In this document: positions 3,986-60,358 of the stretch, in pieces
How the letters are laid out: each line of letters opens with the position of its first letter
Position numbering within the stretch: the stretch's first letter is position 1
Source: a virus
Length of the DNA stretch: 61,964 nucleotides
Direction: 5' to 3' (one strand)
IMG/VR virus record: IMGVR_UViG_3300029944_000009
The notes under the pieces: generated by a model
Database searches by the model: none
Seen by the model: the letters and a program-made list of their open reading frames with translations, nothing else
Told to the model about the DNA's origin: nothing
Program-made: the position numbers and the translations under genes

Positions 3986-4015
3986 GGAAAAGAGCGGCGG
4001 CCGCGAGGCCGCCGC
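3986..4015 (-). terminator. Rho-independent terminator-like hairpin between the GapR-like gene and the polymerase gene
   Basis: On the minus strand: GCGGCGGCC-TCGC-GGCCGCCGC followed by TCTTTTCC. Confidence 0.65.
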
Positions 4016-4018
4016 GTG

Positions 4019-39968: not shown

Positions 39969-40023
39969 TGCTGGACAGCAGCCTAACCAAAGTGTTACAG
40001 GTTGGTACTCAGGAGGCGCAACC

Positions 40024-40806: not shown

Positions 40807-40809
40807 CGC

Positions 40810-43466: not shown

Positions 43467-43468
43467 CC

Positions 43469-44254
43469 ATGCCGCTCCTCCCCGGTAAAAACGAGATCGG
43501 CCACAACATCGAGGAAATGGAAAAAGCGGGGCACCCCCGTGCGCAAGCCATAGCGGCAGCCTTGAATACCGCACGCCGCGCGCACCGGGAAGAAGGCGGC
43601 CCGCTGCAGCCGCCCCCCGGCCCCGCACTTCGCCAGCCGGTACCGGCGAATACTGGTATCAATACGCCCGGCGGCATCCCCGGCGTAGAAGGCATCGCGC
43701 CTATTTCAGGTTTCGGGAACGAACCGGCTGAGAGCAGCGGCCTCGGCCCGGAAGCACCGACCAAAATCCACACCGGCCCAATCCGCTCGCAAGTATCCGG
43801 CCGCACCGATCATCTGCCCGTGCATGTGCCGTCTGGTGCGTACGTCATTCCAGCCGATATCGTTAGCGCCATGGGTGAAGGTAACACCGAGGCCGGGTTC
43901 AAGGTGGCTAAATCCATTTTTGCACAACCGTTCTACGGCACCAAACGCCCCGGCGATGCAGACCCTTACGACCCCAGTGCGCTGCCGTACGACGCTAATG
44001 CCCGGCCTTATTCGCACGAAGAGACGCCGTACAGCCAGCCGATGCCGGGAAAGGCTGCCGGCGGAGCGCACGGCGACCAGGGCGTGCCTGTGGTCCTCGC
44101 GGGCGGCGAGTTCGTCGTAAATCCCGGCGAAGTGCGGCATGTAGGCGAAGGAAATCTCGATGATGGGCATAAATCCCTAGACCAATTCGTTTTACAGATG
44201 CGCCACAAGACTGTTAAGACGTTGAAGAACCTCCCTGGTCCGAAGACCTCATAA
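43469..44254 (+). CDS. Internal virion protein (tentative)
   Basis: Position. Contains GHPRAQAIAAALNTARRAHREEGG and GAYVIPADIVSAMGEGNTEAG motifs. Confidence 0.55.
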   Translation: MPLLPGKNEIGHNIEEMEKAGHPRAQAIAAALNTARRAHREEGGPLQPPPGPALRQPVPANTGINTPGGIPGVEGIAPISGFGNEPAESSGLGPEAPTKIHTGPIRSQVSGRTDHLPVHVPSGAYVIPADIVSAMGEGNTEAGFKVAKSIFAQPFYGTKRPGDADPYDPSALPYDANARPYSHEETPYSQPMPGKAAGGAHGDQGVPVVLAGGEFVVNPGEVRHVGEGNLDDGHKSLDQFVLQMRHKTVKTLKNLPGPKTS

Positions 44255-44267
44255 AGGACGCTCCACG

Positions 44268-44792
44268 ATGGAAGCCCAAACGCTAGAACGCCAAGCCGCC
44301 GAGGACGCCCCCCTCGTACGTACCGCCACGCAATCCGATTTCGCTTCGGTGATGGACCTGTGCCTAGCCTGCCACCACGAGAACGGCTTCGTTAAAGCCA
44401 ACCGGCAGAAGATGGCCAACGATATTTGGGCGGGGCTCACACGGGAGCGCGCTATCGTCGGCATTATCGGCGGCTTGAACGGCAAGCCAGCCGAGGCGTG
44501 CGTCGTTCTACGACTCAGCACCATTGATTATTCCGACGATGACGCCTTCACGGACCAGTTTGTTTATGTCGCCGAGCCGTACCGGCGCGAGAAGATCGGC
44601 CGGGCCAAGTTGCTTCTGGAATTCGCCATGAAGGTATCCGATGACACGGGTATCCCGCTTATGATGGGCATCCTCTCGAACACACGCACTGCCGCGAAAG
44701 TTCGTCTTTACGAGCGCGTCCTCGGCAAACCGGCAGGGGCTTTCTTCCTCTACAACGCATCCACACGCATCCACCTAGAAAGCGAAGGCTAA
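44268..44792 (+). CDS. GNAT-family acetyltransferase
   Basis: VYVAEPYRREKIGRAKLLLEFAMK fits GNAT motif A. Confidence 0.65.
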   Translation: MEAQTLERQAAEDAPLVRTATQSDFASVMDLCLACHHENGFVKANRQKMANDIWAGLTRERAIVGIIGGLNGKPAEACVVLRLSTIDYSDDDAFTDQFVYVAEPYRREKIGRAKLLLEFAMKVSDDTGIPLMMGILSNTRTAAKVRLYERVLGKPAGAFFLYNASTRIHLESEG

Positions 44793-44798
44793 ACCCCC

Positions 44799-47700: not shown

Positions 47701-50081
47701 AAAGCGGTGGTGGCGGGGGTATGATGGGCATGGCTAAAATGTTCCTGGCCAACGGCGGCCGTACTGGTTTCGATGCGGGCGGCTCTCCAACATACAGCAC
47801 GGACGGCAATGCTACGCTGGTTGATACCGGCGGCGGAGGCGCGGATGATAGTTGGATTGACGATGCCATGCGCCTCGCCGGGAATGTTATGGGCACCAAT
47901 CAACAGCCTACCCCGCGCCCGCCGCCGCAGAACCCGGCCGCAGGTCAGGCGTCTGCTGCGCGTCCGCAAACCGCAGCCGCTCAGGTTGCCGCGCCGCCTT
48001 CAGGTGGCCTTGCGCCCACTGCGCAGACAGCACCCGCACCAACTCAGGCCCGGGCCCCGGCGCCAACGCCGCTTACCCCGCCTCCCGCCTCCCGGTCCGC
48101 CGCTCCTGCGCCGCTACCGACACAAGCGGTCGCGCCTCAGCCCATTGCGTCGCCCTCGCCTTCCTCAACCCCAGCGCAAGGTGGTTTGCAGCCAACCGGC
48201 GGCGCAGCTGTAAATCCTTATGCTTACGAAGCGGCCACAGACCAGGTGGAGAGCGGAGGCAACCCCACTGCGGTTAACCAGAACTCTGGCGCGACCGGTC
48301 TGGACCAGTTTACATCTAGGACGTATCTCCAATACGCCGCCGCGCACCCGCAACAGTTCTCGGGTATGTCTCAGGATCAGGTCCTAGCTACGCGCACGGA
48401 CCCGGCGTTCTCGCACGACGCGACGATGTGGCTAGCCAACCAGAACGCGCCTGTTCTCCAGAAAGCTGGCGTAGATCCCACACCGGAAAACCTCTACCTT
48501 GCGCACCAGCAAGGAGCCGGTGGCGCTACCGCGCTGCTTAATAACCCAAACCAGCCTGCCTTGGCGGTATTGACCGGCGTATACGGCGATCAAGCCTCGG
48601 CTGAGAAAGCGATCACGCAGAACGGCGGCAATCTGAAAATGACAGCCGGGGAGTTTGCTAGCACGATCACCGGTAGGTATGACGCAGCCGCGCAGAAAGT
48701 GGGCGATAGCTGGCAGAATGGCGGCAATTTCCCCAGCCTACCGGCGCCGGGCAGCGCGCCCAGCGGCCTCGCAGGTGCGGGCACCACAACCAGCCCCGTC
48801 GCGCAGAAGATCGCGGACACGAACCGCGCTGAAACGGATCAAAATACGTGGTTTGGTAAAAACCAGAACTGGCTCGTACCGGTGCTAACCGGCCTTGGCG
48901 GCATGGCGTCCTCGAACTCGCGTTACCTCGGCTCTGCCGCGCTGCAAGGTTTAGGCGCGGGGGCCGCTGCTTACGAGGGTACACAGAACGCTATGGGCGA
49001 GCGCGCTCACCAGGCTTTGGAGAGCGCGCAGCAACCTGCGCAGCAAGCAATTTCTGAGCAACAGGCTCAGGCCAGCACCATGGGAGGCGAAGCCTCTCTC
49101 GCAAGCCAGCGCACGCTCTCGTACGTATACGGCCAAGGCTACATGTTTACGGACAAGACAACGAACCCGCCAACCGTGCAGTACCTCAACCCGGCGCAAG
49201 CCCAGAGTATCGCCAATTCCGGCGCCGCGACACTTGCGCCCGGCACGCCACCACCGGCCGGAGCCTCTAGCGCGCCAACGCAAAACCCAGCTGGCTCTTA
49301 CGATAAGGGCGGGAACTACGTGCCCACTCCGGTAGCGGCACCCGGGGAGTACCCGGATACGCGGCAGCTTGTGACGCAATTATCCCTGGCTGGCTCGTTC
49401 AACCAACAGCACGCTGCCGACGCCCAGACCGTGGCGCAACAGGACCAGGCCAGTAGAGGTGCGCAGCAAGGGCAAACTATCGTCCAAGGCATGCTTAATG
49501 ACGCCCGCAGCCTGCCAAGCACGAGCCTTGGCGCGTTGGGCAGCGCAAAACTGGACTACGGCAATAAGCTAAATTCCGTGGCCTCCGCTCTCGGCCTCCA
49601 ACCTGTTGTGGCGCCGGGCGACCTCGCTAATGCGGAGGCTATCAACAAGGGCGCCGTGCAGTTGGCCTCGACCTTAGCCTCATCCATCGGCGGCGGTGGA
49701 GCTGAAGTTTTCCAAGACGCGCTTAGCGGTGTGCCGCACATGGGCAATACTCCGGCGGGCTTTGCGCGCCTGGCCTCTACCATAAACCAGATGCAGCAAT
49801 ATACCCGCGATACGGCTAGTTGGGATGATGGCTTTATTTCTAAATACGGCGTGATCCAGGGCGCGCAGGACAAGTTCGCCGCGCAGAAACCACCGCAGTC
49901 ATACGTCAACGCGGCTATAATGCAGGCCATCAACCCGAAAGACGTTTCCAACTGGACGCCAATGGTACAGAAATACGCTAACAACCCCCAGGCGCTAGCT
50001 AATTTTGAGGCGAGTATCGACAACATTTATGGTGGTGGCGCGGGCGCCGTGTTTGTGAATTCAGTCAATGGCAAGCAGTAA
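44799..50081 (+). CDS. 1760-aa ejection/internal-core protein carrying a Peptidase_S74 module and a lytic transglycosylase domain
   Basis: Q/N/A-rich N-terminus, SDKRLKENI... (S74), repeated GGR..GG motifs, a Pro/Ala-rich linker, an SLT motif, and a long C-terminal region. Confidence 0.85.
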   Translation: MGGKNSTSTNQVSIPPQVLAQYNAVNANAASVASTPFQQYSTNPNAFVAPLTAEQNQGISATNQYANSAQPFYGAAGSTLANNVGTSDYNAATGLAANNVAAPLYGAATAETVAGSGQANASQLNGSAINQYLSPYLGDVYGSALAGQQMTNAQQASQLQGSAIGSGAFGGDRSGIAQANLAYQQNLANNQVNANTLNTGYQTALGTAQQQQGVNLSAEQANLARSTAAGSQLANIGTSAEQNQLAQAGQLTNTGTAAENAQLSQGQAIEGLGTSVQQQGLAGAQAEQAAGATQQTTEQQGDTALYNQFLQQQAYPFQTAQFMANIAEGTGALSGTTTTSTQPSSFFSDKRLKENIKVIGKTYDGQKIYKFNYKGEKATQIGFMAQDVEKKHPEAVGSALGYRTVDYDKATEKAAKRGHFDTGGGLAGPDDKQDDGGVQSIAGAQTPPPAPSVQVDPQDHAAPPPQAQPDVVANAVAKANPQGYGGDINSGSKAAPSSLPTAAWAQNKGNSGAQTMDQVTNLIGALARGGRAREGLGFDLGGAPDPQDNSQQQKINDGGVQPVTTPDAVSAPSAKGYVGDINAGAKAAPSSLPTAAWAQNKGNSGAQTMDQITNLIGALKRGGGVGLRWPEHHEGGAALPERAGLGFADGGDPLPAYYDALTNGAGDPYGELNNPAMRLGIPSGGKPGAHGSLMIGHAPPAAPGGQDTVADISNTMGDYEQAAKDLDSAGAYAGGLYQDEAGGGSSVGAGVQGDSMGPRARGGLVPHRQHRDTGGPTAQLPVGEWTSDDSSNGLSDAISDYNTIKGMYGTGKDALFGQAASGSGPNSVAATRGLIGAGGDYNWDGSWTHGALDGQAATDTAPASRGLVGAGGSYSPEAGYFAAGGRAHFDDGGYMGDVQPNQPPQLQKPTPPPQQQQKSGGMGGLGGGGMMGMLARGGRTGFDSGGTAEGDQAAQDQQIASNPETTSKSGGGGGMMGMAKMFLANGGRTGFDAGGSPTYSTDGNATLVDTGGGGADDSWIDDAMRLAGNVMGTNQQPTPRPPPQNPAAGQASAARPQTAAAQVAAPPSGGLAPTAQTAPAPTQARAPAPTPLTPPPASRSAAPAPLPTQAVAPQPIASPSPSSTPAQGGLQPTGGAAVNPYAYEAATDQVESGGNPTAVNQNSGATGLDQFTSRTYLQYAAAHPQQFSGMSQDQVLATRTDPAFSHDATMWLANQNAPVLQKAGVDPTPENLYLAHQQGAGGATALLNNPNQPALAVLTGVYGDQASAEKAITQNGGNLKMTAGEFASTITGRYDAAAQKVGDSWQNGGNFPSLPAPGSAPSGLAGAGTTTSPVAQKIADTNRAETDQNTWFGKNQNWLVPVLTGLGGMASSNSRYLGSAALQGLGAGAAAYEGTQNAMGERAHQALESAQQPAQQAISEQQAQASTMGGEASLASQRTLSYVYGQGYMFTDKTTNPPTVQYLNPAQAQSIANSGAATLAPGTPPPAGASSAPTQNPAGSYDKGGNYVPTPVAAPGEYPDTRQLVTQLSLAGSFNQQHAADAQTVAQQDQASRGAQQGQTIVQGMLNDARSLPSTSLGALGSAKLDYGNKLNSVASALGLQPVVAPGDLANAEAINKGAVQLASTLASSIGGGGAEVFQDALSGVPHMGNTPAGFARLASTINQMQQYTRDTASWDDGFISKYGVIQGAQDKFAAQKPPQSYVNAAIMQAINPKDVSNWTPMVQKYANNPQALANFEASIDNIYGGGAGAVFVNSVNGKQ
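45840..46055 (+). other. Peptidase_S74 intramolecular-chaperone autoproteolysis domain, residues about 348-420 of the 1760-aa protein
   Basis: S348-DKRLKENIKVIGKTYDGQKIYKFNYKGEKATQIGFMAQDVEKKHPEAV...YRTVDYDK. Confidence 0.8.
48213..48555 (+). other. Lytic transglycosylase (SLT-like) domain within the 1760-aa protein
   Basis: DQVESGGNPTAVNQNSGATGLDQFT...YLAHQQGAGGA. Confidence 0.75.
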
Positions 50082-52461
50082 CGATCTCCCGCAGCTTCCG
50101 CCGTCGGTATACGCTGCCGGCGATGCACCCCCGGCGCCCGCGCCGCAGACCGGCTCCGCGTCTGCGGCGCAACCCTTGCCGCAGCTCCCCGCCTCAGTTT
50201 ATGCGCCTCCACCCGCTGCAGGCATGCCGGGTGGCCCTGCCGCGCCGAATTACAGCAACGCCTCGTGGGGCGATGTGGGCAAAGCCGCGCTGCAAGCGCT
50301 CCCCGCTTCCGCTTTGGCCACCGGTAAGGGTATCGCCCAATCACTCAATCCCCTGAACCAGGGCGGTACCGGCTGGGCAAGTCCGGTGGGCGGCACCACT
50401 TGGGCAAATGCTACAGGCATCGTGCCGACAGTGGCTAAGGCTGCCTTCGGCGCGGGCGAGGAGCTTGGCAACTCCGTTGGCGATGCGCTGGGCATGTCTC
50501 CTGGCACTGATACAAGCGATTCGAGCACGGCCGCTTTCAACGCGCTTAAGCAACACTATGGTCAGTATACATCCGAAGGCGGCATTAAGAACGCTATCGC
50601 CACAAATCCGGTTGGCACGGCCTTGGACGCAGCAACGGTAGCCGTGCCGACGCTATCCGCCGTTGGTAAAGTAGACGCGGCCACGGCCGCTGGCGTTGCG
50701 GATCGGTCTGGCGCGCTCACAGCACCCGCCAAAGCAGCCGTAAGCCAAGCATTCCCGGCCACGCCCGCAACGGCCTTTACCAACCCTGAATTTACCCAGG
50801 CTTTCGGCGAGGCCGCGCTGCCCGCCGGTAAGAGCATCTCCAGCGCCACGGCGAAAGAGGCCCTTCTCAAATCGCAAGGTCTCCCGGCGCCTACACCTGT
50901 CGTCACCGGCATAGCCGGGCCGCCGGGCGCCGCTACTGACGCGATCGCAGCCGGGCGCCAAGCGGTCGCATTCAAAGTCGCCAATATCGCGGCGCCGTTA
51001 GCCAAGGATGACACAAGCCTGGGCGCGGCCCTCGCGCGTGCTCGGGCGAATTCGCTCAACAACATTGATAGCCTGTACGACAGCACGCGCGATGTTGACG
51101 GAACACTCACCCCTGGATTTTCCCAGGGGCTTATCGACAATGTCCATGCTGCGGTAGACGCGAGTAGCAAGGGTTCCACGCTATCTTCTAAGATTGTAAA
51201 CGCACCCCTGACCTACCCTCAGACGCAGGCCGCCCTCGCGGCGCTACAGAAAAACGTGATCAGTGCGGATGCTGGCGGCATGCCGATGACCCCCGCAGAT
51301 ATGGCGGATGTTCGAACCGAACTGGGTACCATTCAGGGCATGGCCAAGAACGGCAATGACGCGCGGATGGTCGGGGCGATAAAAAGCGCTTTTGACGATC
51401 ACATGGCCGATCAATATAGCAACGGCGCTTTGCTCGATGAAAACGGCGCCGTAAGCCCGAACAGCGCGGATTTAGGCGCCAAGCTCGCGGCCGCACGCTC
51501 GGCGTATCAAACCCACGCCAATACCTTCTGGCAGCCTGACGGCTGGGCCGGGCAACAAGTCGCCAAAGCCACGAACCTGCTGCCAGGCGAAAGTGTGGAC
51601 GACAACACCGGGCTTAAAATCCCAGGCGCCGGAGATCAAGGAAAAGCGCAAGGCCAGCTAATCAACAGCATCCTCAACCCCGCTACCCTTGCGAACAAAC
51701 CCGGTGGTCTTGGCGTTTACGATACGCTGGCCGGCACGGACGCTTCGCCCGGCCTGCTCGACGATGAAGGTAAGGCTGCGCTCAACGCGCATATCCGCCA
51801 GCTCGCTGGGCAGACTAACAACGGCGTCCTGGCCGCTAAGCCGGGCGCTGTGAGCGCTTTTGCGCAATCGCCCCTTGGCCAGCGTGTATTTTCACCAGAA
51901 GAGCAAACGGCACTGCACCAGCTGAGCGCGGCCGATGACTTATATACCGCGAAACCAGCACCAGGAACACGCACACAGTCATTAGTTCATGCACTGGTAG
52001 GTCAGGGCGCCCGGGCGGGTGCGGCTGGTATAGCGGGCGCCGCAGCGGGCCATATGCTCGGCGCCGGGCCGTTCGGTGCTGTAGTGGGCGGCATCGCAGG
52101 GACCGCAGCAGAGCATGTGGTTGACCCGCTTGTGCAACGCTTTACCGGTGCGTCCAGTGAAGGCGCCCCCGCGTCGGTGGTACCTCGTATCGCGAACAAT
52201 TTGGGTACGCCCATCCGCAAAGGATTTCCAATGGCCGCAGCTGCTAACGTATCCCAGAACGCCCAGCCACACGCCAACGGCGGCCGCATCGGGCGCAAAG
52301 AAGGCGGCAAGGTTGGGTTCGACCACGTGGCGAAGGCGGCTTCTCTCGTACGCGCCGCCGCCATCGCGCGGGGCAAGCACAATAAGACCACGGAACCGTT
52401 GCTAGACCAGCCAGATGAGGCCATTACAAAAGCCCTGGCCATCGCGAACCAGCACTTTTAG
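50068..52461 (+). CDS. Internal-core/ejection protein, positionally like T7 gp15
   Basis: 797 aa and Ala/Gly-rich. Overlaps the upstream gene by 14 nt. Confidence 0.65.
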   Translation: MASSNDLPQLPPSVYAAGDAPPAPAPQTGSASAAQPLPQLPASVYAPPPAAGMPGGPAAPNYSNASWGDVGKAALQALPASALATGKGIAQSLNPLNQGGTGWASPVGGTTWANATGIVPTVAKAAFGAGEELGNSVGDALGMSPGTDTSDSSTAAFNALKQHYGQYTSEGGIKNAIATNPVGTALDAATVAVPTLSAVGKVDAATAAGVADRSGALTAPAKAAVSQAFPATPATAFTNPEFTQAFGEAALPAGKSISSATAKEALLKSQGLPAPTPVVTGIAGPPGAATDAIAAGRQAVAFKVANIAAPLAKDDTSLGAALARARANSLNNIDSLYDSTRDVDGTLTPGFSQGLIDNVHAAVDASSKGSTLSSKIVNAPLTYPQTQAALAALQKNVISADAGGMPMTPADMADVRTELGTIQGMAKNGNDARMVGAIKSAFDDHMADQYSNGALLDENGAVSPNSADLGAKLAAARSAYQTHANTFWQPDGWAGQQVAKATNLLPGESVDDNTGLKIPGAGDQGKAQGQLINSILNPATLANKPGGLGVYDTLAGTDASPGLLDDEGKAALNAHIRQLAGQTNNGVLAAKPGAVSAFAQSPLGQRVFSPEEQTALHQLSAADDLYTAKPAPGTRTQSLVHALVGQGARAGAAGIAGAAAGHMLGAGPFGAVVGGIAGTAAEHVVDPLVQRFTGASSEGAPASVVPRIANNLGTPIRKGFPMAAAANVSQNAQPHANGGRIGRKEGGKVGFDHVAKAASLVRAAAIARGKHNKTTEPLLDQPDEAITKALAIANQHF

Positions 52462-52470
52462 GATACCGGC

Positions 52471-53817
52471 ATGACAACGAATAGAAATCTATCGACTCCC
52501 GCAAACGGCGCCGATGTCGGGACGTGGGATGCCAACCTTAACGGGAACTTCATTGTCATAGATGCATCCTTAGGTACCGCAACCACGTTAAGCCAAACAG
52601 CAGCGGGCACGTACCCCCTTACCACGGTGATATCCGGCTCCGGGCTAAGCGCAGTGGCGCAATATCAGGCGGCTATTTTCGTCGTTACCGGAACGCTTAC
52701 CGGCAACGTGGTCTACCAAATCCCAGCGGGTGTTGGTGGTGAATGGACGATCAATGCGTTGGCGCTTCAGCCCGCGGGTTTCACCTGCACTTTCACGTCG
52801 GCAACAGGCGGCGGGACGTCCGTGTCTCTGGCGGGTGGCTCAACAGCCTATATCTATTGCGATGGCACGAACGTCCGCAGCCAAACGGTTCCAGGAAACT
52901 ACAACGCTATCGTGACCAATGCAGGCACCAGCGGGGCGTTGGCCGCTGCGCAATCTGGCGCGTTCATAGAGCTAACGAGTGCGACTTCGGGCAGCTTCGC
53001 GCTGCCGTCGCCAGCAACTGGCGCGCCGGTCACGTTTACCTTCTGGACGACCCAAGCGTCTCAGACTCTCACCGCCTCGGCCGGTAGCATAACGGGGCCG
53101 GGCCTTGCTGCGGCTTCCTCGTTAGTGGTCCCTGCGAATGCCATAGTTTCGCTGACTTCGGACGGGGCCAACTGGATCGCCGCGTTTTCTGTCGCCCCGT
53201 TAGCGGGGCTGACCACCGCGCCCATGCCGCTCATCACAAACGCCAATTCCGCGCCTTTAGGCTGGAGCCAGTACAACCCGGCGACGACCAATACACCGGC
53301 GGCTTCCACTACCGGAACTCTCAGCACAACCAGCACGACCGGGAGCGCGACGCCGGCCTCTGGCAACGTCATAACCCAAACGGCGTACCACGTATCTGGC
53401 GATAATTCATATTTTAGAACGAACCCGAATAACGGCGGCTGGTCTGCTTGGCAGCAAGTAGTGTCCCTTACGGCTGGGGCGAACGCGGTCCCGGTAGGGG
53501 CGTCCGCTAGCGTGGTTCCCGGGACCGTAGCCACCGCTACGACGCCCGCTTTCACCGCACCTAGCAGCGGCGCGTTAATGATTGCTGTGACGTTTTCCTA
53601 CGCTAACATTCTTCCACTACCGACGACTACTACCACTACATCCTTGGGCGGCCTTGTGCAGCTTACCGGCCCCTTGCCATTAAACACGCAAGTTTTCTGG
53701 TATTATTTGCCCATGGCGACCGGCCAAAACACAACAATAACCGGGCAGCTCGTGAGTACGGGCGGAAGCGTCAACATGTCAGTTGGTGTTGCGGCTTTCT
53801 TCCTGCCGTTAGCCTAA
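52471..53817 (+). CDS. Tail fibre protein
   Basis: Last gene of the late arm. Thr/Ser/Ala/Gly-rich. Shares a domain with 24770..25918. Confidence 0.65.
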   Translation: MTTNRNLSTPANGADVGTWDANLNGNFIVIDASLGTATTLSQTAAGTYPLTTVISGSGLSAVAQYQAAIFVVTGTLTGNVVYQIPAGVGGEWTINALALQPAGFTCTFTSATGGGTSVSLAGGSTAYIYCDGTNVRSQTVPGNYNAIVTNAGTSGALAAAQSGAFIELTSATSGSFALPSPATGAPVTFTFWTTQASQTLTASAGSITGPGLAAASSLVVPANAIVSLTSDGANWIAAFSVAPLAGLTTAPMPLITNANSAPLGWSQYNPATTNTPAASTTGTLSTTSTTGSATPASGNVITQTAYHVSGDNSYFRTNPNNGGWSAWQQVVSLTAGANAVPVGASASVVPGTVATATTPAFTAPSSGALMIAVTFSYANILPLPTTTTTTSLGGLVQLTGPLPLNTQVFWYYLPMATGQNTTITGQLVSTGGSVNMSVGVAAFFLPLA

Positions 53818-56087
53818 GACTTTTGCCGCTTCATGGCGGCAAGCAAGATGTCCTGGACTGATCTCTTGCTGCCTAGGCGGTCCAGGACCATCTCGTCTAC
53901 CGTGTCGGCCGCAACTATATAGTGGACGAATACAGGCCGCTTGAGACCCGCTTGGGCTTGCCGCATGGGGCCAATACGCTCGATAATCTGCATGTGCTCT
54001 TCCAAACTCCAGTTTAGCCCGAAAAAAGCTAGAATGTTGCCGCCGGCAGCCAGGTTCAGGCCATGGCCAGCGGAGTTATGGGATATAAATACTTCCCCAA
54101 AGTTATTACGTATTAGAAACCGGTGGCGGGGGCCGCAATCTACAAGGTCGTAGACTGGCGAGACTTGCGGCGGCGGGGATACGTCGATTTCTCGTAGTCG
54201 GCTACCGCTTCGTCTCCGGTCATGCCCCTGTTTAGCCTTGGTAGAAGCGCGCCCTTTGTCCCCCCAGACCTCCGGCAAAATTCGGCGAGGTGCATAGTCT
54301 CGCCCTTGTACGTGATTACCCGGTTGTTTGTTTTGTTCGCTTGTTGCTCTGCGTTCGTTGCCCAGCGGCAATTTTCCTTCGAATACCCCAGACTGTTGTC
54401 TATTCGCTCTATCGTCAAATTTGGCGCGTATGTACTCCACATGTCGTTGTAAAAGTTTTTGAAATCTACCCAAGACCTGGACAGTCCTTTTCCTGCTCCC
54501 CCGTACCTCCAGTAATTCCGGCAAGTGGACGACAGCGCCCGCTCCTTCATCCCTTTCCATATCGACCAAAAACGAGTGTTGGTCATGTTGTGGAACGTAT
54601 CCTGGACGCACGTCTTGCAGTGCTTGTCCCCGCGTTTGTTGGCGCGTAACAGGTTCTGTAGCGCCATCTCCTGCTCCGCGCCGCAGTGGCAACATTTCGC
54701 TAAGGTATATCTCATCTCCCTCATAGAAGAATTGAATCGATTCGGTAGCATTTTCACCATCCCGAACATTTTTGGCCTCTACCCATTCCCCGTTTATAAG
54801 AAGTTTATGCTCCGGCGTCATAGTGATGCCAAATCGCGAGATCACGTTTCGAACACCTGAAAAGATACAGCCCGCGTGGTTAACAAAAGCCACGCCATCG
54901 TGCACCCGTTCTTGTTTTTCGACATCAACGAGGCTAACCCACCCCCGGTGTTCAGTCAACACTTCAGTCTCGGGGTGCAAGCATGCGGGGTGGGCAAATA
55001 ATAGCGGGATTTCGCCCGCGTTCCATCGCTCTATGGTCTTTGGGTCCGCGTCGAGATGCTTGCCTTTCGGAAACGCTTCTTTCAACCGCGCCAGATCATG
55101 TTTGAAGTTATACGCAACAAGAACCGGCACGCCGTTCGCTTCTTCGACGATGCTCTCTAGCGCATCGAGCTTGGCGTTATGCAGGTCTGTAAAGACTCTA
55201 GCGGCTTCATCTGTGTACAGGCCCCCATTGCAAATTTGGAGGCATTTATTCGTGCGTACGGCGGCGTTCGCTGCGCCTATAGCGATATCTTCTGCCAGTT
55301 CCACGAACATTTCCGCCTGCATCTCGTCGTAGATCGCGCGGGCATCTGGTGGTAGTTCAATCTTCACGATATTGTGAATAGGCGCGTCAACAGGTAAGCC
55401 GTCCACCGTCAGGCATAGGTCTTTGACCTTCTCGTGTATTTCGCCTTCAGAATGCGCGAGCGGCACAAGGCTGTAGCCATCGTAACCGGTGCGGAACCAT
55501 CTGTCGCTGAAGGCTGAGTAGGAGTGACCGAGCCGGGCACCCCGGTCCAAGAACCACAGTTGGCCCCACAGGTCTTTGAGGCCATTCGGCGAGGGCGTAC
55601 CAGTTAGGCCGATGAAGCGGGGGGTTGGATGCGCAAACTTCGCCAGAGCCCGGGCGCGCATGCTACCTTGCCGCAGGCGAAAAGATTTCAGCCGTGTGAA
55701 CTCGTCGGCTATAATTGTTTTAAACGGCCATGTGCCGCCAAGGGCGCCGAGTAGCCATTTGAGGTTTTCGTAATTCATACAGTAAATGTCAGCTGGTCTC
55801 TGGAGTGCTTGCGCGCGCTCCTTCGTGCTGCCAGTGATGACCGATACCCGCAGATGTTTTAGGTGCGGCCACTTCTGCACTTCCGGCCCCCATACGGTGC
55901 GAGCAACGCGCAGAGGCGCCAATACCAACGCGGGGAACACGTCTTCAACGAGGGCGAGGCTATCCAGCGCGGTAAGGGTCGAGACCGTCTTCCCGGACCC
56001 CATCGCGGCCCACAGCGCGCAGCGCGGGTTTGCTTGGATAAAATCCACCATGTCTTGCTGGTAGTCGTGCGGGATAAATTTTGTCAC
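53814..56087 (-). CDS. SNF2-family helicase interrupted by an intein
   Basis: Motif I AAMGSGKT, motif II IIADEF, motif III LTGTPSPNG, motif V split as LLFAHPA|...|SAGHGLNL. GTG start. Confidence 0.9.
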   Translation of the reverse strand: MTKFIPHDYQQDMVDFIQANPRCALWAAMGSGKTVSTLTALDSLALVEDVFPALVLAPLRVARTVWGPEVQKWPHLKHLRVSVITGSTKERAQALQRPADIYCMNYENLKWLLGALGGTWPFKTIIADEFTRLKSFRLRQGSMRARALAKFAHPTPRFIGLTGTPSPNGLKDLWGQLWFLDRGARLGHSYSAFSDRWFRTGYDGYSLVPLAHSEGEIHEKVKDLCLTVDGLPVDAPIHNIVKIELPPDARAIYDEMQAEMFVELAEDIAIGAANAAVRTNKCLQICNGGLYTDEAARVFTDLHNAKLDALESIVEEANGVPVLVAYNFKHDLARLKEAFPKGKHLDADPKTIERWNAGEIPLLFAHPACLHPETEVLTEHRGWVSLVDVEKQERVHDGVAFVNHAGCIFSGVRNVISRFGITMTPEHKLLINGEWVEAKNVRDGENATESIQFFYEGDEIYLSEMLPLRRGAGDGATEPVTRQQTRGQALQDVRPGYVPQHDQHSFLVDMERDEGAGAVVHLPELLEVRGSRKRTVQVLGRFQKLLQRHVEYIRAKFDDRANRQQSGVFEGKLPLGNERRATSEQNKQPGNHVQGRDYAPRRILPEVWGDKGRASTKAKQGHDRRRSGSRLREIDVSPPPQVSPVYDLVDCGPRHRFLIRNNFGEVFISHNSAGHGLNLAAGGNILAFFGLNWSLEEHMQIIERIGPMRQAQAGLKRPVFVHYIVAADTVDEMVLDRLGSKRSVQDILLAAMKRQKS
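54075..54983 (-). mobile_element. Intein of 303 codons inserted in helicase motif V
   Basis: CLHPETEVLT (block A), TMTPEHKLL (block B), VYDLVDCGPRHRFLIRNNFGEVFISHN followed by the +1 Ser (blocks F/G). Confidence 0.85.
54140..54769 (-). CDS. HNH-family homing endonuclease nested inside the helicase intein in a different reading frame
   Basis: RFWSIWKGMKERALSSTCRNYWRYGGAGKGL...LTIERIDNSLGYSKENCRWAT...ITYKGETMHLAEFCR. The offset from the host start is 1318 nt, which is not a multiple of 3. Confidence 0.8.
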   Translation of the reverse strand: MFGMVKMLPNRFNSSMREMRYTLAKCCHCGAEQEMALQNLLRANKRGDKHCKTCVQDTFHNMTNTRFWSIWKGMKERALSSTCRNYWRYGGAGKGLSRSWVDFKNFYNDMWSTYAPNLTIERIDNSLGYSKENCRWATNAEQQANKTNNRVITYKGETMHLAEFCRRSGGTKGALLPRLNRGMTGDEAVADYEKSTYPRRRKSRQSTTL

Positions 56088-56142
56088 TTGTCAGCTTTCA
56101 TTTGCAAGGCCCGCTTAGCAGGTATTTAGAGGCGCGCAATGC

Positions 56143-56256
56143 TCATTTCTTGATCCTCGTTTCTGTAGGGCGCGGGCCAATAAAAAGTCCAGCAGCCCAC
56201 CAAAAATGCGCCCAAAACACCGGACTCCTAAGTGTGTCACGCCATCTGCGCCTCAT
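56143..56256 (-). CDS. 37-aa ORF, MRRRWRDTL...
   Basis: ATGA-coupled to the upstream gene. The start lies in a conserved junction repeat. Weak call. Confidence 0.25.
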   Translation of the reverse strand: MRRRWRDTLRSPVFWAHFWWAAGLFIGPRPTETRIKK

Positions 56257-56417
56257 ATCGTGGATGCCTTCTCTTTCTCAGGTTGATGTTGAAGGGTGCC
56301 GGTGTGTAGGCATTTTGGACAAACAAGCTTGCCCCTAAAAATGCCGCACTGGTCCCGCCGGAACGTTATGCAGCACCCGTCGCAGCGAAAATTTGCCGAT
56401 GGCTCGTAGGGGCTCAT
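56253..56417 (-). CDS. Small Zn-ribbon protein
   Basis: ATGA-coupled ATG at 56417. CDGCC...CPKC. Confidence 0.5.
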   Translation of the reverse strand: MSPYEPSANFRCDGCCITFRRDQCGIFRGKLVCPKCLHTGTLQHQPEKEKASTI

Positions 56418-56920
56418 TTGAGGGCCCTCAATGACATGGGAAGGGGGTACGGCTCGGCGCTGGCATCTGAGGAATTGAAGCACGTAATTTCTCCGGCATT
56501 CGCCTTCTCTGCCCCACCCAAAAACTTGGCCGTATCGGGGTATCTGACGCGGAGTTTTTCAGGAAGCGCAGAGCCAGACCAAAGATCAAACGTTGTAACG
56601 CGCTGACCTTGATAGACGGACGGCTCGATATATTCGATGTCAAACCGGCGCCCCGCCATGCCGCGCATTGGCCCCGATGTGCGATTGCCCGGGCCATAGA
56701 CGTGGCCGCCGATAATCGTCTTCTTGGCGTGATTGCTTTTGAGATCCTTCTCAAACTCGAACCAATGGTTGCACATGTAGCACATGCGGCGGTCGAGCAG
56801 ATTGGTTCGGTACGGCTCGCAGTATGTATTGCGTGCGACCTCGCCGCAGCCCAAGCATACGTACTCATGATACTTCACGTCATGCCTGGGGGCGATTGTA
56901 ATCTCCCTCAATTCGCTCAT
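56414..56920 (-). CDS. Cys-rich hypothetical protein
   Basis: ATGA-coupled ATG at 56920. CLGCG...CYMCNHWFEF. Confidence 0.6.
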   Translation of the reverse strand: MSELREITIAPRHDVKYHEYVCLGCGEVARNTYCEPYRTNLLDRRMCYMCNHWFEFEKDLKSNHAKKTIIGGHVYGPGNRTSGPMRGMAGRRFDIEYIEPSVYQGQRVTTFDLWSGSALPEKLRVRYPDTAKFLGGAEKANAGEITCFNSSDASAEPYPLPMSLRALK

Positions 56921-57105
56921 TTGTCGGTTCCTTCTGTCACGTATCCATTGCCATCGCAGGTAGCGCACTTGTCGAAGAACTGCTCCCGATTCCGGTCTTC
57001 CCATTCCTCCCCGCCGGTCCCGGCACATTCTAGGCAAAGAACGCAACCGGCCGGGATTTCCTTTGCGGGGTCGCGATGGATTGGATAGATCGGATCATCG
57101 CTCAT
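56917..57105 (-). CDS. DnaJ-type zinc-finger protein with CxxCxGxG x2
   Basis: CLECAGTG and CATCDGNG. Confidence 0.6.
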   Translation of the reverse strand: MSDDPIYPIHRDPAKEIPAGCVLCLECAGTGGEEWEDRNREQFFDKCATCDGNGYVTEGTDK

Positions 57106-57338
57106 TGGTTTGCCTTTGCGTCTTCAGGGGTTTCATATTTGCCGCATTTTTCGCAGGTGCGTTCGACGGTTCCATCGCCGTCCCATTTATGGTCACAGGC
57201 GGCCATCACTGCGATCCAGTCCGCCGAGCACGACTCGCAAAACAATCCGCCGTTGACTGGATCGTGAACCTCGCCGATTTCCGATTCTGGAAAATCTTTT
57301 GCGCACGCTTCGCAGCGGAACGTATCTTCGGGGCTCAT
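57102..57338 (-). CDS. Small Zn-ribbon protein
   Basis: CEAC...CESC...CEKC. I prefer the ATG at 57338 over the TTG at 57350. Confidence 0.55.
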   Translation of the reverse strand: MSPEDTFRCEACAKDFPESEIGEVHDPVNGGLFCESCSADWIAVMAACDHKWDGDGTVERTCEKCGKYETPEDAKANQ

Positions 57339-57343
57339 TTCAT

Positions 57344-57553
57344 TCACCAACTTTCATCGCCAACGCGAGTAGTTAATCCCCACCCCACGACGCTCGACCA
57401 AGACGCTTTGAAGTAGGCTTTTAAGTCGCCGCGCATCTGCTTCCGCTCGTAGCCAAGCAGCTGGCGCTGGACAGTATGTTTGCGGGCCTTGTCGTAGATC
57501 AACGCCGGGCCATCGCCGGTCAACGGCACCTGTACCTTAACGATTTCGCTCAT
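57344..57553 (-). CDS. Hypothetical protein
   Basis: ATG at 57553 after GAGAGAAAGG. Confidence 0.5.
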   Translation of the reverse strand: MSEIVKVQVPLTGDGPALIYDKARKHTVQRQLLGYERKQMRGDLKAYFKASWSSVVGWGLTTRVGDESW

Positions 57554-57663
57554 TGGTTTGCCTTTCTCTCTTTCCGCGCAACGCGGTAGGCTTCTTGCTT
57601 GGCGCGCCGCCATAGTCGCGCTTCCTGGGAGCATGACCGTGACGGCTGATGATTACGCCTCAT
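57550..57663 (-). CDS. 37-aa basic ORF, MRRNHQPSR...
   Basis: ATGA-coupled at both ends. The start lies in a conserved junction repeat. Weak call. Confidence 0.25.
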   Translation of the reverse strand: MRRNHQPSRSCSQEARLWRRAKQEAYRVARKERKANQ

Positions 57664-57878
57664 ATCGTGGATGTCCTCTCGTTCTCGTAAGCAGCGATTG
57701 CGTTGTGCGCTTCCAGTCGAGTAAGGGCGACGGCCTCTGCAATCGCCGGAAATTTGCCGCTTTCGGCCGCCGTAACCATCTCCGACCACGCCAGAGCACC
57801 ACCCTCTGGCGCGGCCTCAATCCCGGCCGAGCTGGCGCACCATGTTTCCCAGATCGCTTTGGCGGCGGCTTCGCTCAT
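57660..57878 (-). CDS. Hypothetical protein
   Basis: Coupled track ORF. Confidence 0.5.
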   Translation of the reverse strand: MSEAAAKAIWETWCASSAGIEAAPEGGALAWSEMVTAAESGKFPAIAEAVALTRLEAHNAIAAYENERTSTI

Positions 57879-58123
57879 TTGATTAATCCTGTCTCTGTTG
57901 CGATAGACACGGCCTGGGCCATGCCAGAGGCATAGATCGCGCCCAACGCCGCGCTGAACGATCGGCCTGAATTAGTCATATCGGTAAAGATCGAAAGCGC
58001 CTGGCGCTGGCACATGTCCCAATGCTTCGGGTCCATCCATTCTGCCGCTTGCATATTCGGCGGCAGGTACTGGCCAGAGAACCGCGATGACGGTTGCAAC
58101 GGGGTTATTGTGGTGCGGGTCAC
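57875..58123 (-). CDS. Hypothetical protein
   Basis: Coupled track ORF. Confidence 0.5.
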   Translation of the reverse strand: MTRTTITPLQPSSRFSGQYLPPNMQAAEWMDPKHWDMCQRQALSIFTDMTNSGRSFSAALGAIYASGMAQAVSIATETGLIK

Positions 58124-58362
58124 GGTTGCGCGTTCCCGCGGGCCAGCAATTCAGAGATGCTTCCGGGAAGCGGTTCACCGACAAAATCGGCGGCTGGATT
58201 GCCAAAATTGGGGCCGGGAATAAACCATTTCTGGGGACGCGCGGCGTCGATCTTAGCTAGAAGGTCATAGTAGGGCTGACACTGGCGCTGCGCCGTCTCC
58301 ATAATAGACCGAATGATGCGGAGCGCATTTTGTTCGGCCTTTTCGATCTCTTCCTCCCTCAT
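58120..58362 (-). CDS. Hypothetical protein
   Basis: Coupled track ORF. Confidence 0.5.
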   Translation of the reverse strand: MREEEIEKAEQNALRIIRSIMETAQRQCQPYYDLLAKIDAARPQKWFIPGPNFGNPAADFVGEPLPGSISELLARGNAQP

Positions 58363-58595
58363 TTCTCTGATCCTTCTCTTACAGATTCAATGGCTTCTAT
58401 TCGGGGGGCTATGCCTGGCACATGCTCCCACAAGAGCGCAATGGAAGTATCCAAAGCCTCTTCAAGTTCTGCAATTCGTTCATCTTTAGGATCACGTTTT
58501 TCAACCTCTTTGCGAGCGTTAAATTCCGCAAGCGCGGCGGCTGACTTTCTCCTGCGTTCGGCTAGTTCAGCGCCGGTGGATTTCGGTTTGCTCAT
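58359..58595 (-). CDS. Hypothetical charged coiled-coil protein
   Basis: Coupled track ORF. Confidence 0.5.
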   Translation of the reverse strand: MSKPKSTGAELAERRRKSAAALAEFNARKEVEKRDPKDERIAELEEALDTSIALLWEHVPGIAPRIEAIESVREGSEK

Positions 58596-58597
58596 TT

Positions 58598-58789
58598 CTA
58601 GGACTCCGTTATGGTGTGGTGGCGCTCAATCACGGCCAGGGCGGCGCGGGCTTGGCGCATATACATGGCTTGCCCATCCTCAGTTAAATCTTCCATTGTC
58701 AACTGCTCATCCAAACCTGACGAAAAAACAAACTCGTTGTTGGCAATCGCAAGCGCCATGGCTTCGACCACGTAATCGGGAACGCTCAT
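58598..58789 (-). CDS. Hypothetical protein
   Basis: Track ORF. Confidence 0.5.
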   Translation of the reverse strand: MSVPDYVVEAMALAIANNEFVFSSGLDEQLTMEDLTEDGQAMYMRQARAALAVIERHHTITES

Positions 58790-58917
58790 TACTTTGGCTT
58801 CCTTCCGAAAATTGGTTGATCCCGCGAGCCGAGCTTCCGGTATGCGGTCGAGGGGCTGACGCCGATCTGCTCGGCCGCCTGGTTGCCGGTCAATTCGGGG
58901 TTAGATGACCTGCACAT
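58789..58917 (-). CDS. 42-aa HTH protein, resolvase/Hin-type HTH-like
   Basis: ATG at 58917 after GGAGGGGGG. Translation: MCRSSNPELTGNQAAEQIGVSPSTAYRKLGSRDQPIFGRKPK. Confidence 0.4.
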   Translation of the reverse strand: MCRSSNPELTGNQAAEQIGVSPSTAYRKLGSRDQPIFGRKPK

Positions 58918-59452
58918 GAACCCCCCTCCGTTCGATAAAATCAGCCATCGATGGCAGTTCCTTGGCGGCGATGATCAGGGTGTCACCAGTCCGCAGCAAC
59001 TTCTTTGTGAAAAGCTTGTCGTCGAAAATGTGCCCAGGATGTATGACCATGCGCTCCATAATAGCGCGGGTTCGCTTTGACCCTTTTATCGGTAAAAATG
59101 CTACCACAGCAGGGCTTATAAGCTGAGGAAAATCTGGCCTTGGTTTTGCGATGCGTTCATTCTCACCATCAACCGCCGCAATCACGTTTTCGATTGCCGC
59201 AATGGCACGGTGAGCAGAGACAGCGAATGTCTCGGTTGTTCCATAAGCTGGCGCGCGGTGTGGTTTTAACGCTCGATGTACCAGCCGTTCTATGATTTGG
59301 GCGTCTCCGTGCGGGCGTTCCCATGATTGAATCAAACCAATTTCCATATCACGGAAGCGCAACGCCCGCAGACGAGCAAGAGGGCTAACAGAAAATCCTA
59401 TTTTGTGGAGGCGTTCTCCATATCGCATGACGTAGACAAAATTAGCGGGCAT
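58901..59452 (-). CDS. T5orf172 (GIY-YIG-like) domain protein whose C-terminal segment resembles part of a serine-recombinase catalytic domain
   Basis: N-terminus VYVMRYGERLHKIGFSVSPLARLRAL. C-terminus IFDDKLFTKKLLRTGDTLIIAAKELPSMADFIERRGV. Confidence 0.6.
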   Translation of the reverse strand: MPANFVYVMRYGERLHKIGFSVSPLARLRALRFRDMEIGLIQSWERPHGDAQIIERLVHRALKPHRAPAYGTTETFAVSAHRAIAAIENVIAAVDGENERIAKPRPDFPQLISPAVVAFLPIKGSKRTRAIMERMVIHPGHIFDDKLFTKKLLRTGDTLIIAAKELPSMADFIERRGVHVQVI

Positions 59453-59600
59453 TTTTGAGCGCCTTCCGTAAGGCGATTTTTACCCATTGCGTTACGGTGC
59501 GCTCGTCCGCTTTGGCGGCTCGCTCGATGGCGGCTTTCATGTCTGCATCTACGCGAATGCCTAGGTGCGCGTCGGGGACGGCTTGTTCTGGGTTTTCCAT
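59442..59600 (-). CDS. Ribbon-helix-helix (CopG/Arc-like) regulator, first gene of the second leftward arm
   Basis: HLGIRVDADMKAAIERAAKADERTVTQWVKIALRKAL. Alternative upstream starts are at 59618 and 59678. Confidence 0.6.
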   Translation of the reverse strand: MENPEQAVPDAHLGIRVDADMKAAIERAAKADERTVTQWVKIALRKALKNAR

Positions 59601-59642
59601 GCACCGAGCATAGCGCATTTGTTTAACCTCGTCAAATACCGT

Positions 59643-59671
59643 TTGACAGATTGCAAGCGAAGGATTATAAA
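59643..59671 (+). promoter_or_regulatory. Near-consensus sigma70-type promoter
   Basis: TTGACA (59643-48), 17 nt, TATAAA (59666-71), upstream of the C5 MTase gene. Confidence 0.55.
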
Positions 59672-59719
59672 GGGCCATCGCCGGGCTGTTCCGGTATTCA
59701 CAAATTGCCCGGAGCCTGC

Positions 59720-60358
59720 GTGAAACCCAAAGCCTTAGATTTATTTTGTTGTGCTGGCGGCGCTGCGATGGGTTTGCATCGTGCTGGCTTCGAGGTTGTC
59801 GGTGTGGATATTGAGCACCAGAAGAATTATCCGTTTGAGTTTCACCAAGCCGACGCGCTCGGACATTCGCTTGAAGGCTTTGACTTTATATGGGCTTCGC
59901 CGCCGTGCCAGGCTTATTCTAACGCCCAGCGTATCCGCTCAAATGACCACCCCGATTTAGTGGGGCCGATCCGTGAACGGCTCAAAGCCTCCGGTGTTCC
60001 CTGGGCTATTGAGAATGTCGTCGGCGCGCCCCTCATAAATCCGATTGAGCTTTGCGGGTCGATGTTCCCCGGATTGCGCACATACCGCCATCGACTGTTC
60101 GAGTGTTCTTTCCCTATATCCGCGCCGGTACACCCAGAGCACGAGGCTCCTCTCACCAAGATGGGGCGCCCCGTAGCGGCAGAAAACTTCATGCACGTCG
60201 TAGGCAATTTCTCTGGCGTGCAGAAGGCTCGCGAAGCCATGGGGATTGATTGGATGGTGCGCGACGAGTTGCGCGAGGCAATCCCGCCGGCATATTCAGA
60301 GTACATCGGCCGCGCCGCCCTGGCGGTCATAAACGCCAAGCGGGCGGTTGCCGCTTAA
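59720..60358 (+). CDS. dcm: Compact DNA cytosine-5 methyltransferase
   Basis: GTG at 59720, 5 nt after GGAG and downstream of the promoter. Motifs DLFCCAGGAAMG (I), SPPCQAYS (IV), ENV (VI), RHRLF (VIII), AIPPAYSEYIG (X). Confidence 0.85.
   Translation: MKPKALDLFCCAGGAAMGLHRAGFEVVGVDIEHQKNYPFEFHQADALGHSLEGFDFIWASPPCQAYSNAQRIRSNDHPDLVGPIRERLKASGVPWAIENVVGAPLINPIELCGSMFPGLRTYRHRLFECSFPISAPVHPEHEAPLTKMGRPVAAENFMHVVGNFSGVQKAREAMGIDWMVRDELREAIPPAYSEYIGRAALAVINAKRAVAA

Follow-up and report, generated by a model that had tools for sequence, protein, structure and literature searches.

A putative homing-endonuclease gene overprinted in the +1 frame on the intein of a phage SNF2 helicase

A 303-codon insertion carrying a second gene interrupts a SNF2 helicase at motif V

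We analysed the virus record IMGVR_UViG_3300029944_000009, a stretch of 61,964 nucleotides (nt) that is referred to here as the window. Its minus strand encodes a SNF2-family DNA helicase that is interrupted by a predicted intein, and a second gene, which resembles a homing-endonuclease gene, lies within the intein in another reading frame. An earlier note, made from the letters of this DNA and its open reading frames (ORFs), had placed an intein of 303 codons at helicase motif V (54075..54983) and an ORF in the +1 frame of its middle (54140..54769) that ends inside the codons of intein block F. Alignment with the helicase of phage RW (below) confirmed the position of the intein to the base, and the coordinates and frames of the nested ORF proved to be exact. 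The features of the locus are as follows.

53814..56087, minus strand: ORF of the SNF2-family DNA helicase precursor, intein included (757 amino acids, GTG start)
54984..56087, minus strand: N-extein, helicase residues 1-368, ending ...LLFAHPA (from alignment to an intein-free orthologue)
54075..54983, minus strand: predicted intein of class-1 type, 303 codons, Cys1...His302-Asn303 followed by Ser+1 (from the insertion relative to the RW helicase)
54684..54983, minus strand: predicted N-terminal Hint lobe, intein residues 1-100, with block A (CLHPETEVLT) and block B (TMTPEHKLL) (AlphaFold2 predicted local distance difference test score, pLDDT, 70-96)
54174..54683, minus strand: host-frame filler, intein residues 101-270, stop-free, rich in R, G and Q, predicted to be disordered (pLDDT ~36-60)
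54075..54173, minus strand: predicted C-terminal Hint lobe, intein residues 271-303, with blocks F and G, VYDLVDCGPRHRFLIRNNFGEVFISHN (pLDDT 92-96)
53814..54074, minus strand: C-extein, SAGHGLNL... to the stop codon, with Ser+1 (54072..54074) as the predicted splice-junction nucleophile
54776..54783, minus strand: Shine-Dalgarno-like GGTAGAGG, 6 nt upstream of the nested ATG (54767..54769), within host codons W-V-E-A at the end of the N-lobe
54140..54769, minus strand: nested homing-endonuclease-like gene, 209 amino acids, +1 frame relative to the helicase (from phrog_3377, ~59 homologues of the same length and an AlphaFold2 model)
54140..54142, minus strand: stop codon TAG of the nested gene, formed from host block-F codons V281 (GTA) and D282 (GAT) in VYDLVD (from the sequence)

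The N-terminal half of the 757-residue ORF matched the SNF2-related, DEAD and ResIII domains of Pfam (SNF2-rel_dom, E 2.7e-14), and the ORF matched the DNA helicase family phrog_62 of the PHROGs database with an E-value of 9.5e-142. The nearest annotated phage genes encode the 454-residue helicases of the 62-kb Caulobacter phages RW, KcrB, RLK and GB2A, all of which are intein-free and to which the window helicase is ~67% identical in nucleotide and 65% identical in amino acid sequence. Because of this distance, and because a megablast search with 20 kb of the window (40000..60000) against 50,697 deposited phage genomes returned no match, the window is, by sequence comparison, an undescribed phage or prophage. 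Alignment with the intein-free RW helicase revealed one insertion of 303 residues, LLFAHPA/C...ISHN/SAGHGLNL, at SNF2 motif V. Its removal in silico yielded the junction sequence ...CACCCCGCA/TCCGCTGGCCATGGC..., across which the Pfam Helicase_C domain aligned, albeit weakly (E 0.025, below the cut-off). The G+C content (GC) of the intein is 0.517, compared with 0.586 for the window, which places it in the lowest 3% of 909-nt windows.

The insertion has the residues and the predicted fold of a class-1 intein

The residues C1, T56, H59 (the last two in the TxxH motif), H302 and N303 are unchanged in 36 relatives of the helicase intein, the C-lobe positions D279, C283, G284, R286 and F289 are likewise invariant in these relatives, and Ser+1 was found at every junction examined, that of the window included. 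AlphaFold2 modelling of the 303-residue host-frame intein gave pLDDT values of 92-96 for residues 1-70 and 271-303, 70-81 for residues 71-100 and ~36-60 for residues 101-265. When the model was compared with the PDB by Foldseek, the best 49 matches were all Hint or intein structures (7cfv, 8ubs, 6riz, 1mi8, 1at0 and others; probability 1.0), including the DnaX mini-intein, NrdJ-1, gp41-1, DnaB, RecA and hedgehog; their E-values are modest (0.007-0.05) because of the long insert in the model. At the level of sequence, the N-part of the Neq Pol intein is a weak match to the N-terminal Hint lobe, and one relative, P0130, matched Intein_splicing (E 1.5e-15), the match being due to a different intein that this protein also carries. 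By its residues and its modelled fold the helicase insertion is thus a class-1 intein, which would be removed by protein splicing.

The middle of the intein is of a different nature. The earlier note had described it, in the host frame, as stop-free and rich in R, Q and G, and both its composition (R 14.7%, G 10.6%, Q 8.8%) and the absence of stops bear this out. The host-frame middle matched no family in Pfam or PHROGs, and we found no endonuclease domain in frame with the splicing domain, the intervening segment being disordered in the model and unconserved as a protein.

The helicase frame is kept open through the 630 nt of the nested gene

The nested ORF starts 1318 nt after the helicase start and is therefore in the +1 frame, and the last ~29 codons of the N-lobe (~86 nt, 54684..54769) overlap its beginning. 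The host gene is a single continuous ORF of 757 codons, with no stop/start split around the endonuclease gene: across the span of the nested ORF the host frame contains 0 stops and the third frame contains 14. We examined how this is brought about at the risk positions of the nested ORF, that is, the third codon positions before AA, AG or GA codons, where a T would create a host-frame stop. In the window copy T occurs at 0 of 59 such positions and at 27 of 149 positions elsewhere. Synonymous resampling of the nested ORF with the codon usage of the window gave a mean of 11.3 host-frame stops, and none of 20,000 samples was stop-free; permutation of the ORF's own synonymous codons gave an expectation of 6.8 host-frame stops, with P(0) = 1.5e-4. 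Because there are no host-frame stops where 6.8-11.3 would be expected, we conclude that the helicase frame is kept open through another gene's 630 nt.

The nested ORF belongs to a gene family annotated as HNH endonuclease

The product of the nested ORF matched two PHROG families annotated as HNH endonuclease with high significance (phrog_3377, E 9.5e-41; phrog_374, E 5.6e-33), and three more so annotated were also matched (phrog_8790, phrog_2081 and phrog_953). A search of 5.8 billion proteins returned 114 homologues, ~59 of which have the same length (204-231 amino acids) and are 44-61% identical over the full length; Met1 is invariant among the 74 aligned homologues. The AlphaFold2 model built from this 74-sequence alignment has a mean pLDDT of 92.2. 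It consists of a three-stranded N-terminal unit with four conserved Cys residues (CxxC...CxxC, zinc-ribbon-like), a helical region, a strand-strand-helix (beta-beta-alpha) core, LTIERIDN...NCRWAT...EQQANK, and a C-terminal helical domain. The elements of the core are strands 119-122 and 134-137 and helix 139-144, and N133 and N145 are invariant. A comparison of the model with BFVD identified 106 predicted viral structures at E <= 0.001, many of them named HNH, AP2 or homing endonuclease.

That the nested ORF represents a real gene family is evident from the match to phrog_3377, the ~59 homologues of the same length and the pLDDT of 92. The term HNH-like, as used here for its product, is an assignment at the level of annotation. 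Alignment of the endonuclease profile with a true HNH_3 domain by hhalign paired the expected NCRWAT..N segment (E 0.44, not significant).

The two-frame arrangement recurs in independent contigs, and selection acts on the nested frame

The same +1 layout, with zero host-frame stops, was found in at least 13 independent contigs from different samples, which range in GC from 0.39 to 0.62. Motif-V helicase inteins with a +1-frame endonuclease gene occur in L005-L008, L009 (GC 0.39), L010 (a viral contig of 47 kb) and L011 (GC 0.62), and further copies, all with a stop-free host frame, in L012, L013, L014, L015/L016 and L092. When nine nested copies were pooled, T was present at 0 of 524 risk positions, compared with ~24% elsewhere, and the permutation P(0 stops) was at most 0.0014 for each copy. 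A free-standing copy of the gene (L002), by comparison, has T at 6 of 53 risk positions and six stops in the corresponding frame.

The nine nested copies were aligned by codon. Read in the endonuclease frame, their pairwise nucleotide divergence was 0.377 at first, 0.315 at second and 0.574 at third codon positions; translation of that frame gave a mean amino acid identity of 0.536, compared with 0.309 for the host frame and 0.304 for the third, unused one. These values argue strongly for purifying selection on the endonuclease frame. The host-frame middle, judged from the same alignment, is without constraint at the protein level beyond that of staying open, the first ~30 overlapping codons excepted. 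In these codons conservation is slightly raised in both frames, and they contain a conserved (A)xYxY...L motif; because mini-inteins (see below) retain this motif, the stretch is probably part of the N-lobe.

The two-frame arrangement has persisted through deep divergence. The earlier note had argued that the nested design is no artefact and is recurrent and selectable, and had asked whether the out-of-frame ORF is conserved in related inteins. The at least 13 contigs, the free-standing siblings and the presence of the filler signature in most relatives uphold the former view, and the out-of-frame ORF is conserved, as the identity of 0.536 attests. An exhaustive HMMER search with the host-frame intein against 1.84 billion cluster representatives gave 1601 matches at E <= 0.001, 45 of them at E <= 1e-30; ~60 of the top 150 matches align over all 303 residues, filler included. 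A profile built from the filler only matched 126 of the 157 proteins retrieved. When viral contigs were scanned for the host-frame intein there were no matches, since the peptide patterns used in the scan derived from the unconstrained filler.

In the short contigs L005-L009, public gene callers had called the nested ORF and a C-terminal fragment of 109-110 amino acids, not the helicase precursor. The precursors are thus missed, and systematic mis-annotation as a 'hypothetical protein' and a truncated helicase follows.

The nested gene has putative start signals of its own

All nine nested copies examined have an ATG preceded by a Shine-Dalgarno-like motif of the GGnGGAGG type, namely GGTAGAGG, GGTGGAGG, GGCGGAGG or GGGAGG. 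The ATG of the window, L009, L010 and L015 copies comes just 2-3 codons after a stop in the +1 frame, which argues for independent initiation and not for a frameshift fusion. A scan for sigma-70-like promoters on the gene strand inside the helicase gene found none, and terminator-like matches in the same scan were weak; the nested gene is therefore most likely translated from the helicase mRNA. The other end of the gene is also placed with some regularity: for 7 of 9 motif-V copies the stop falls within the block-F codons (Y-D-L-V/I), as it does for the helicase inteins of a second site and for one intein of DNA polymerase A (PolA), both of which are described below.

The module occupies several sites, decays to mini-inteins and has free-standing relatives

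Only one close homologue of the nested gene was found to be free-standing (P0032, 53% identity; L002-L004). In L002 an intein-free SNF2 helicase gene (2478..3938) is followed, 63 nt downstream, by the endonuclease gene (4001..4630). This helicase shares 31% identity with the spliced form of the window protein and has a divergent motif V, AHSANLSHGVDGL in place of AHPASAGHGLNL; the arrangement may represent a cleavage-resistant target or a gene that has escaped from an intein. The distant homologues are mostly free-standing, at 74 of 80 metagenome loci and at 76 of 79 loci in genomes or metagenome-assembled genomes. The nested copies comprise five at motif V and L078 in the former set and three in the latter. 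In a neighbour-joining tree without support values, the free-standing L002 gene falls next to or inside the nested motif-V clade, and the nested genes of the second helicase site fall among other free-standing genes.

This second site (site A), LQ(I/F/M)/C...HN/CNG, is occupied in L078 and L014. The L014 helicase (host frame 265..3219) carries two inteins, one at LLQM/C...IVHN/CNG and one at motif V, and each contains one +1-frame endonuclease gene (1337..1966 and 2501..3157), the two belonging to different subfamilies. Further, the module resides in family-A DNA polymerases (P0192, P0160, P0213, P0234 and P0165; L102, 124..3234; L128, 1..2616), and the PolA copies for which DNA was in hand again have a +1-frame endonuclease gene and 0 stops in the host frame. 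L128 and P0165 each contain a second intein of another type. A terminase-like protein, P0171, holds two copies of the module. Every nested copy with DNA in hand uses the +1 frame.

Decay of the module is also apparent. In P0119 and P0136 the overprinted endonuclease gene has partial internal deletions, and P0155, P0157, P0159, P0161 and P0169 have mini-inteins of ~135-170 amino acids at the same helicase site. The mini-inteins keep an ARYTYxGxDxYL segment, which suggests that this segment belongs to the N-lobe of the Hint domain. The patchy presence of the element, its decayed copies, the mini-inteins, the several sites and the low GC fit homing, as far as it can be read from sequence.

Two relatives have a more complex make-up. 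P0139 (949 amino acids) has a Pfam HNH_3 match at residues 65-106, upstream of the SNF2 domain, beside a nested-type intein. P0150 (1081 amino acids) has a LAGLIDADG_3 match at residues 184-239, which is probably a second, canonical intein, and a nested-type intein at residues 683-987.

Proposed mechanism and alternative explanations

With a probability of roughly 0.78, we propose that the locus is a mobile class-1 intein in motif V of a phage SNF2 helicase, the endonuclease of which has a gene to itself, overprinted on the intein linker in the +1 frame. Ribosomes would read the 757-residue precursor through the ~170-residue disordered linker, and the two Hint lobes (~100 and ~33 residues) would associate and excise the intein to yield a helicase of 454 amino acids with motif V restored. 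A minority of ribosomes would initiate on the same mRNA at the internal GGTAGAGG-N6-ATG and produce, at a low level, the HNH-like endonuclease of 209 amino acids, a size that is identical to that of the free-standing relatives. During co-infection the endonuclease would cut intein-free helicase alleles near the sequence coding for motif V, and repair from the intein-bearing allele would copy the intein and the endonuclease gene together. An endonuclease gene that had been free-standing probably invaded a mini-intein linker and so gave rise to the element; the module would later have moved to the second helicase site and to PolA, and it would decay by deletion to mini-inteins.

Several points weigh against this proposal. 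All functional steps, from splicing and internal initiation to nuclease activity and its target site, are inferred from sequence; a start inside an ORF that is itself being translated is, as a rule, inefficient; and the tree, having no support values, is compatible with the free-standing copy as ancestor or as escapee. With regard to the nested protein, a fold search of the PDB with its model gave nothing at E <= 0.001 and only noise such as chromodomains and integrases, a sequence search of the PDB with the endonuclease profile gave no match, and Pfam (HNH and HNH_3 included) and NCBIfam scans of the nested ORF identified no family. Moreover, the motif (I/L)(E/D)R(I/V)D has an invariant R122 where the catalytic His of HNH_3-type domains is expected, and the cleavage chemistry is uncertain because of this replacement. 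The Arg and the lack of Pfam HNH and solved-structure matches, together with the naming of some homologues as 'AP2 domain' or 'DNA-binding domain protein', would suit a nested ORF that is conserved but is not, or is no longer, a nuclease (it might bind DNA, act in regulation or be a degenerate HNH), the intein being inherited vertically or served by a nuclease in trans. We regard this as unlikely in view of the strong matches to five HNH-annotated PHROG families, the beta-beta-alpha topology in a confident model, the strong purifying selection on the nested frame and the free-standing copy that adjoins an intein-free helicase; the presence/absence polymorphism, decayed copies, mini-inteins and several sites are, in addition, the classic signature of active homing. 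With regard to the intein, a Pfam scan of it and of an in-silico mini-intein gave no intein match above threshold, and NCBIfam TIGR01445 scored 15.8 bits, below its cut-off of 24.5. Such scores could be accounted for by an insertion that does not splice, either because it is a tolerated helicase loop, as proposed for ShiLan, where an out-of-frame HNH insertion without splicing has precedent (PMC11855218), or because the helicase is dispensable. This is quite improbable: the insertion splits helicase motif V, the canonical splicing residues (C1, TxxH, HN and S+1) are all present and invariant, the predicted fold matches Hint/intein structures only, and the mini-intein derivatives keep exactly the Hint lobes.

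Two further explanations concern the relation of the frames. Programmed +1 ribosomal frameshifting would yield an endonuclease fused to the N-terminal Hint lobe, and it is true that both ORFs lie on the same strand and mRNA and that ~16 codons ahead of the ATG are free of +1-frame stops in L005, L012 and L014. In the window, L009, L010 and L015, however, the +1 stop 2-3 codons before the ATG leaves almost no room to shift. Met1 is invariant in the 74 homologues, free-standing ones included, and the Shine-Dalgarno-like motif is conserved, with no slippery motif noticed, all of which makes such a fusion very improbable. Frameshifts in a single contig are common a priori, and the nested ORF lies exactly where the endonuclease domain of an intein is expected, so that a canonical in-frame HNH intein disguised by two compensating sequencing or assembly errors also had to be considered. 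An assembly artefact is excluded, its probability being negligible, because the same architecture, with the same +1 offset, start and stop position, recurs in the many independent assemblies over a GC range of 0.39-0.62. Further, a stop-free alternative frame is improbable by chance (P ~1e-4 or less per copy), the nested ORF is equipped with a Shine-Dalgarno motif, ATG and stop of its own and matches its free-standing homologues in length, and an in-frame endonuclease version was not found among the 157 retrieved relatives. On the evidence counted against each, the indel artefact, the frameshift fusion and the non-splicing loop were rejected.

Our proposal may be extended, more tentatively, to a view of the Hint domain and the +1-frame endonuclease gene as one ancient, obligately overprinted mobile unit. 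We consider this possible, though we lean against it. Such a unit would have a fixed geometry, in which the W-V-E-A-K codons that close the N-lobe contain the Shine-Dalgarno motif and ATG, and the Y-D-L-V codons of block F contain the stop. It would have hopped as a unit among at least four sites (helicase motif V, helicase LQxC/NG, DNA polymerase A and the terminase-like protein) and diversified into well over 100 clusters at 50% identity. If so, the overlap would be adaptive, coupling the nuclease to the splicing element and throttling its translation, and the element would be a living intermediate on the way to in-frame nuclease domains or to split inteins.

Relation to known systems

The earlier note had drawn an analogy with collaborative homing, in which group I introns are reportedly associated with free-standing endonuclease genes (work attributed to Bonocora and Shub in 2009 and to Zeng and colleagues in 2009). 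The free-standing sibling directly downstream of an intein-free helicase fits this analogy. Phage methylase genes contain ShiLan-type out-of-frame HNH insertions that lack a splicing domain (Arsenault et al., PMC11855218). As in collaborative homing and ShiLan, the insertion and the separately encoded endonuclease of the window family would profit mutually, and the ShiLan HNH gene also lies in a stop-free host frame. The window element differs from both, from the former because that involves an intron and from the latter because that has no splicing element, in that clear Hint lobes flank its endonuclease gene.

The closest precedents come from actinophages, where the homing endonuclease of some non-canonical inteins is encoded in a reading frame of its own (Gosselin, Arsenault and Gogarten, bioRxiv 10.1101/2025.01.02.630785). 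Such inteins carry an endonuclease VII-like gene ('frame 3') or antisense genes of the LAGLIDADG or VSR-like type, make up 63 of 784 inteins and are thus rare, reside in hosts such as terminase and polymerase genes and are proposed to originate from free-standing endonuclease genes that invaded inteins. The window family shares with them a splicing domain in the extein frame, a separate endonuclease ORF, free-standing relatives and the proposed origin. It differs in that its endonucleases are HNH-like by PHROG families 3377/374, always in the +1 frame, with SNF2 helicase and PolA as hosts in non-actinophage and metagenomic phages, and in its conserved start (Shine-Dalgarno motif in the W-V-E-A codons) and block-F stop. 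No analysis of stop avoidance was found in the parts consulted of that preprint (10.1101/2025.01.02.630785).

A cyanobacterial dnaX intein has a LAGLIDADG gene in a +2 ORF (Phillips, DeSimone and Gogarten, bioRxiv 10.64898/2026.09.14.751524). In this case purifying selection acts on the overlapping ORF but is relaxed in the host-frame middle of the intein; some relatives are mini-inteins, and secondary invasion of a mini-intein is proposed (10.64898/2026.09.14.751524); the out-of-frame endonuclease of this intein goes back to Gorbalenya 1998, to judge from its citation in that preprint. The window family resembles the dnaX intein in its selected overlapping endonuclease ORF, relaxed host-frame middle, mini-intein relatives and proposed origin. 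Whereas the dnaX case involves a cellular host, LAGLIDADG, the +2 frame and one gene, the window family is phage-borne, HNH-like, in the +1 frame and present in several genes and sites.

In the fractured genes of Dassa et al. 2009 (PMC2677866), split inteins have a free-standing endonuclease gene between their halves. These genes also bear on the model of intein invasion by free-standing endonuclease genes, and they share with the window an independent endonuclease ORF between N- and C-terminal intein parts in a phage replication gene. They differ in that two host ORFs are present there and splicing occurs in trans; because the host frame of the window is continuous and actively kept stop-free, its intein is contiguous. 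Canonical bifunctional inteins with an in-frame HNH domain are known from phages (attributed to Dalgaard et al. 1997). The window element likewise combines a Hint domain and an HNH-type nuclease at the same position in the same element, but its nuclease is a separate polypeptide from another frame and not a domain of the intein.

A search of the full-text literature found no description of the +1-frame endonuclease family of helicase inteins. The class of architecture has already been published (preprints of 2025-2026), and the window represents a new, large member family, which differs in endonuclease family, +1 frame, host genes, phage group, start/stop geometry and apparent abundance. Its value therefore lies in breadth and quantitative evidence and not in a new principle. 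The family is among the clearest natural examples of long-term dual coding, with ~630 nt in which one frame is selected as protein and the other is only kept open and flexible. It supports a 'splicing element first, nuclease later' view of intein evolution, and all stages are held within this single family: a free-standing gene beside its target, nested genes, decayed copies and mini-inteins. Gene callers and intein databases miss such elements, Pfam and NCBIfam recognizing neither the Hint domain nor the nuclease, and the R/Q/G-rich stop-free filler is usable as a search signature. Further, the apparent tolerance of the modelled Hint lobes for a disordered insert of ~170 residues may be relevant to intein engineering.

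A second nested design in the terL gene of the same window

The terL ORF of the window (15896..18466, plus strand) also contains an intein, HDDL/CLVAGTKI...GMLVHN/CDT. Within it lies a nested ORF of 200 amino acids (17689..18291, plus strand), which is in the +2 frame, has a canonical HNH motif (HHRDGD...N...H) and matched phrog_15471 (E 1.7e-18). The terL host frame has 0 stops over the nested ORF (permutation P = 0.002). Thus, the same nested design is indeed present in two host genes and in two relative frames, +2 in terL and +1 in the helicase, with both host frames stop-free, as the earlier note had observed. Its further claim that two nuclease families are involved holds at the level of sequence, in that the terL nested ORF has no sequence similarity to the nested gene of the helicase intein, but both are labelled HNH in PHROGs. 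The lower GC that it had noted for both inserts is evident for the helicase intein and only marginal for terL (0.566 vs 0.582).

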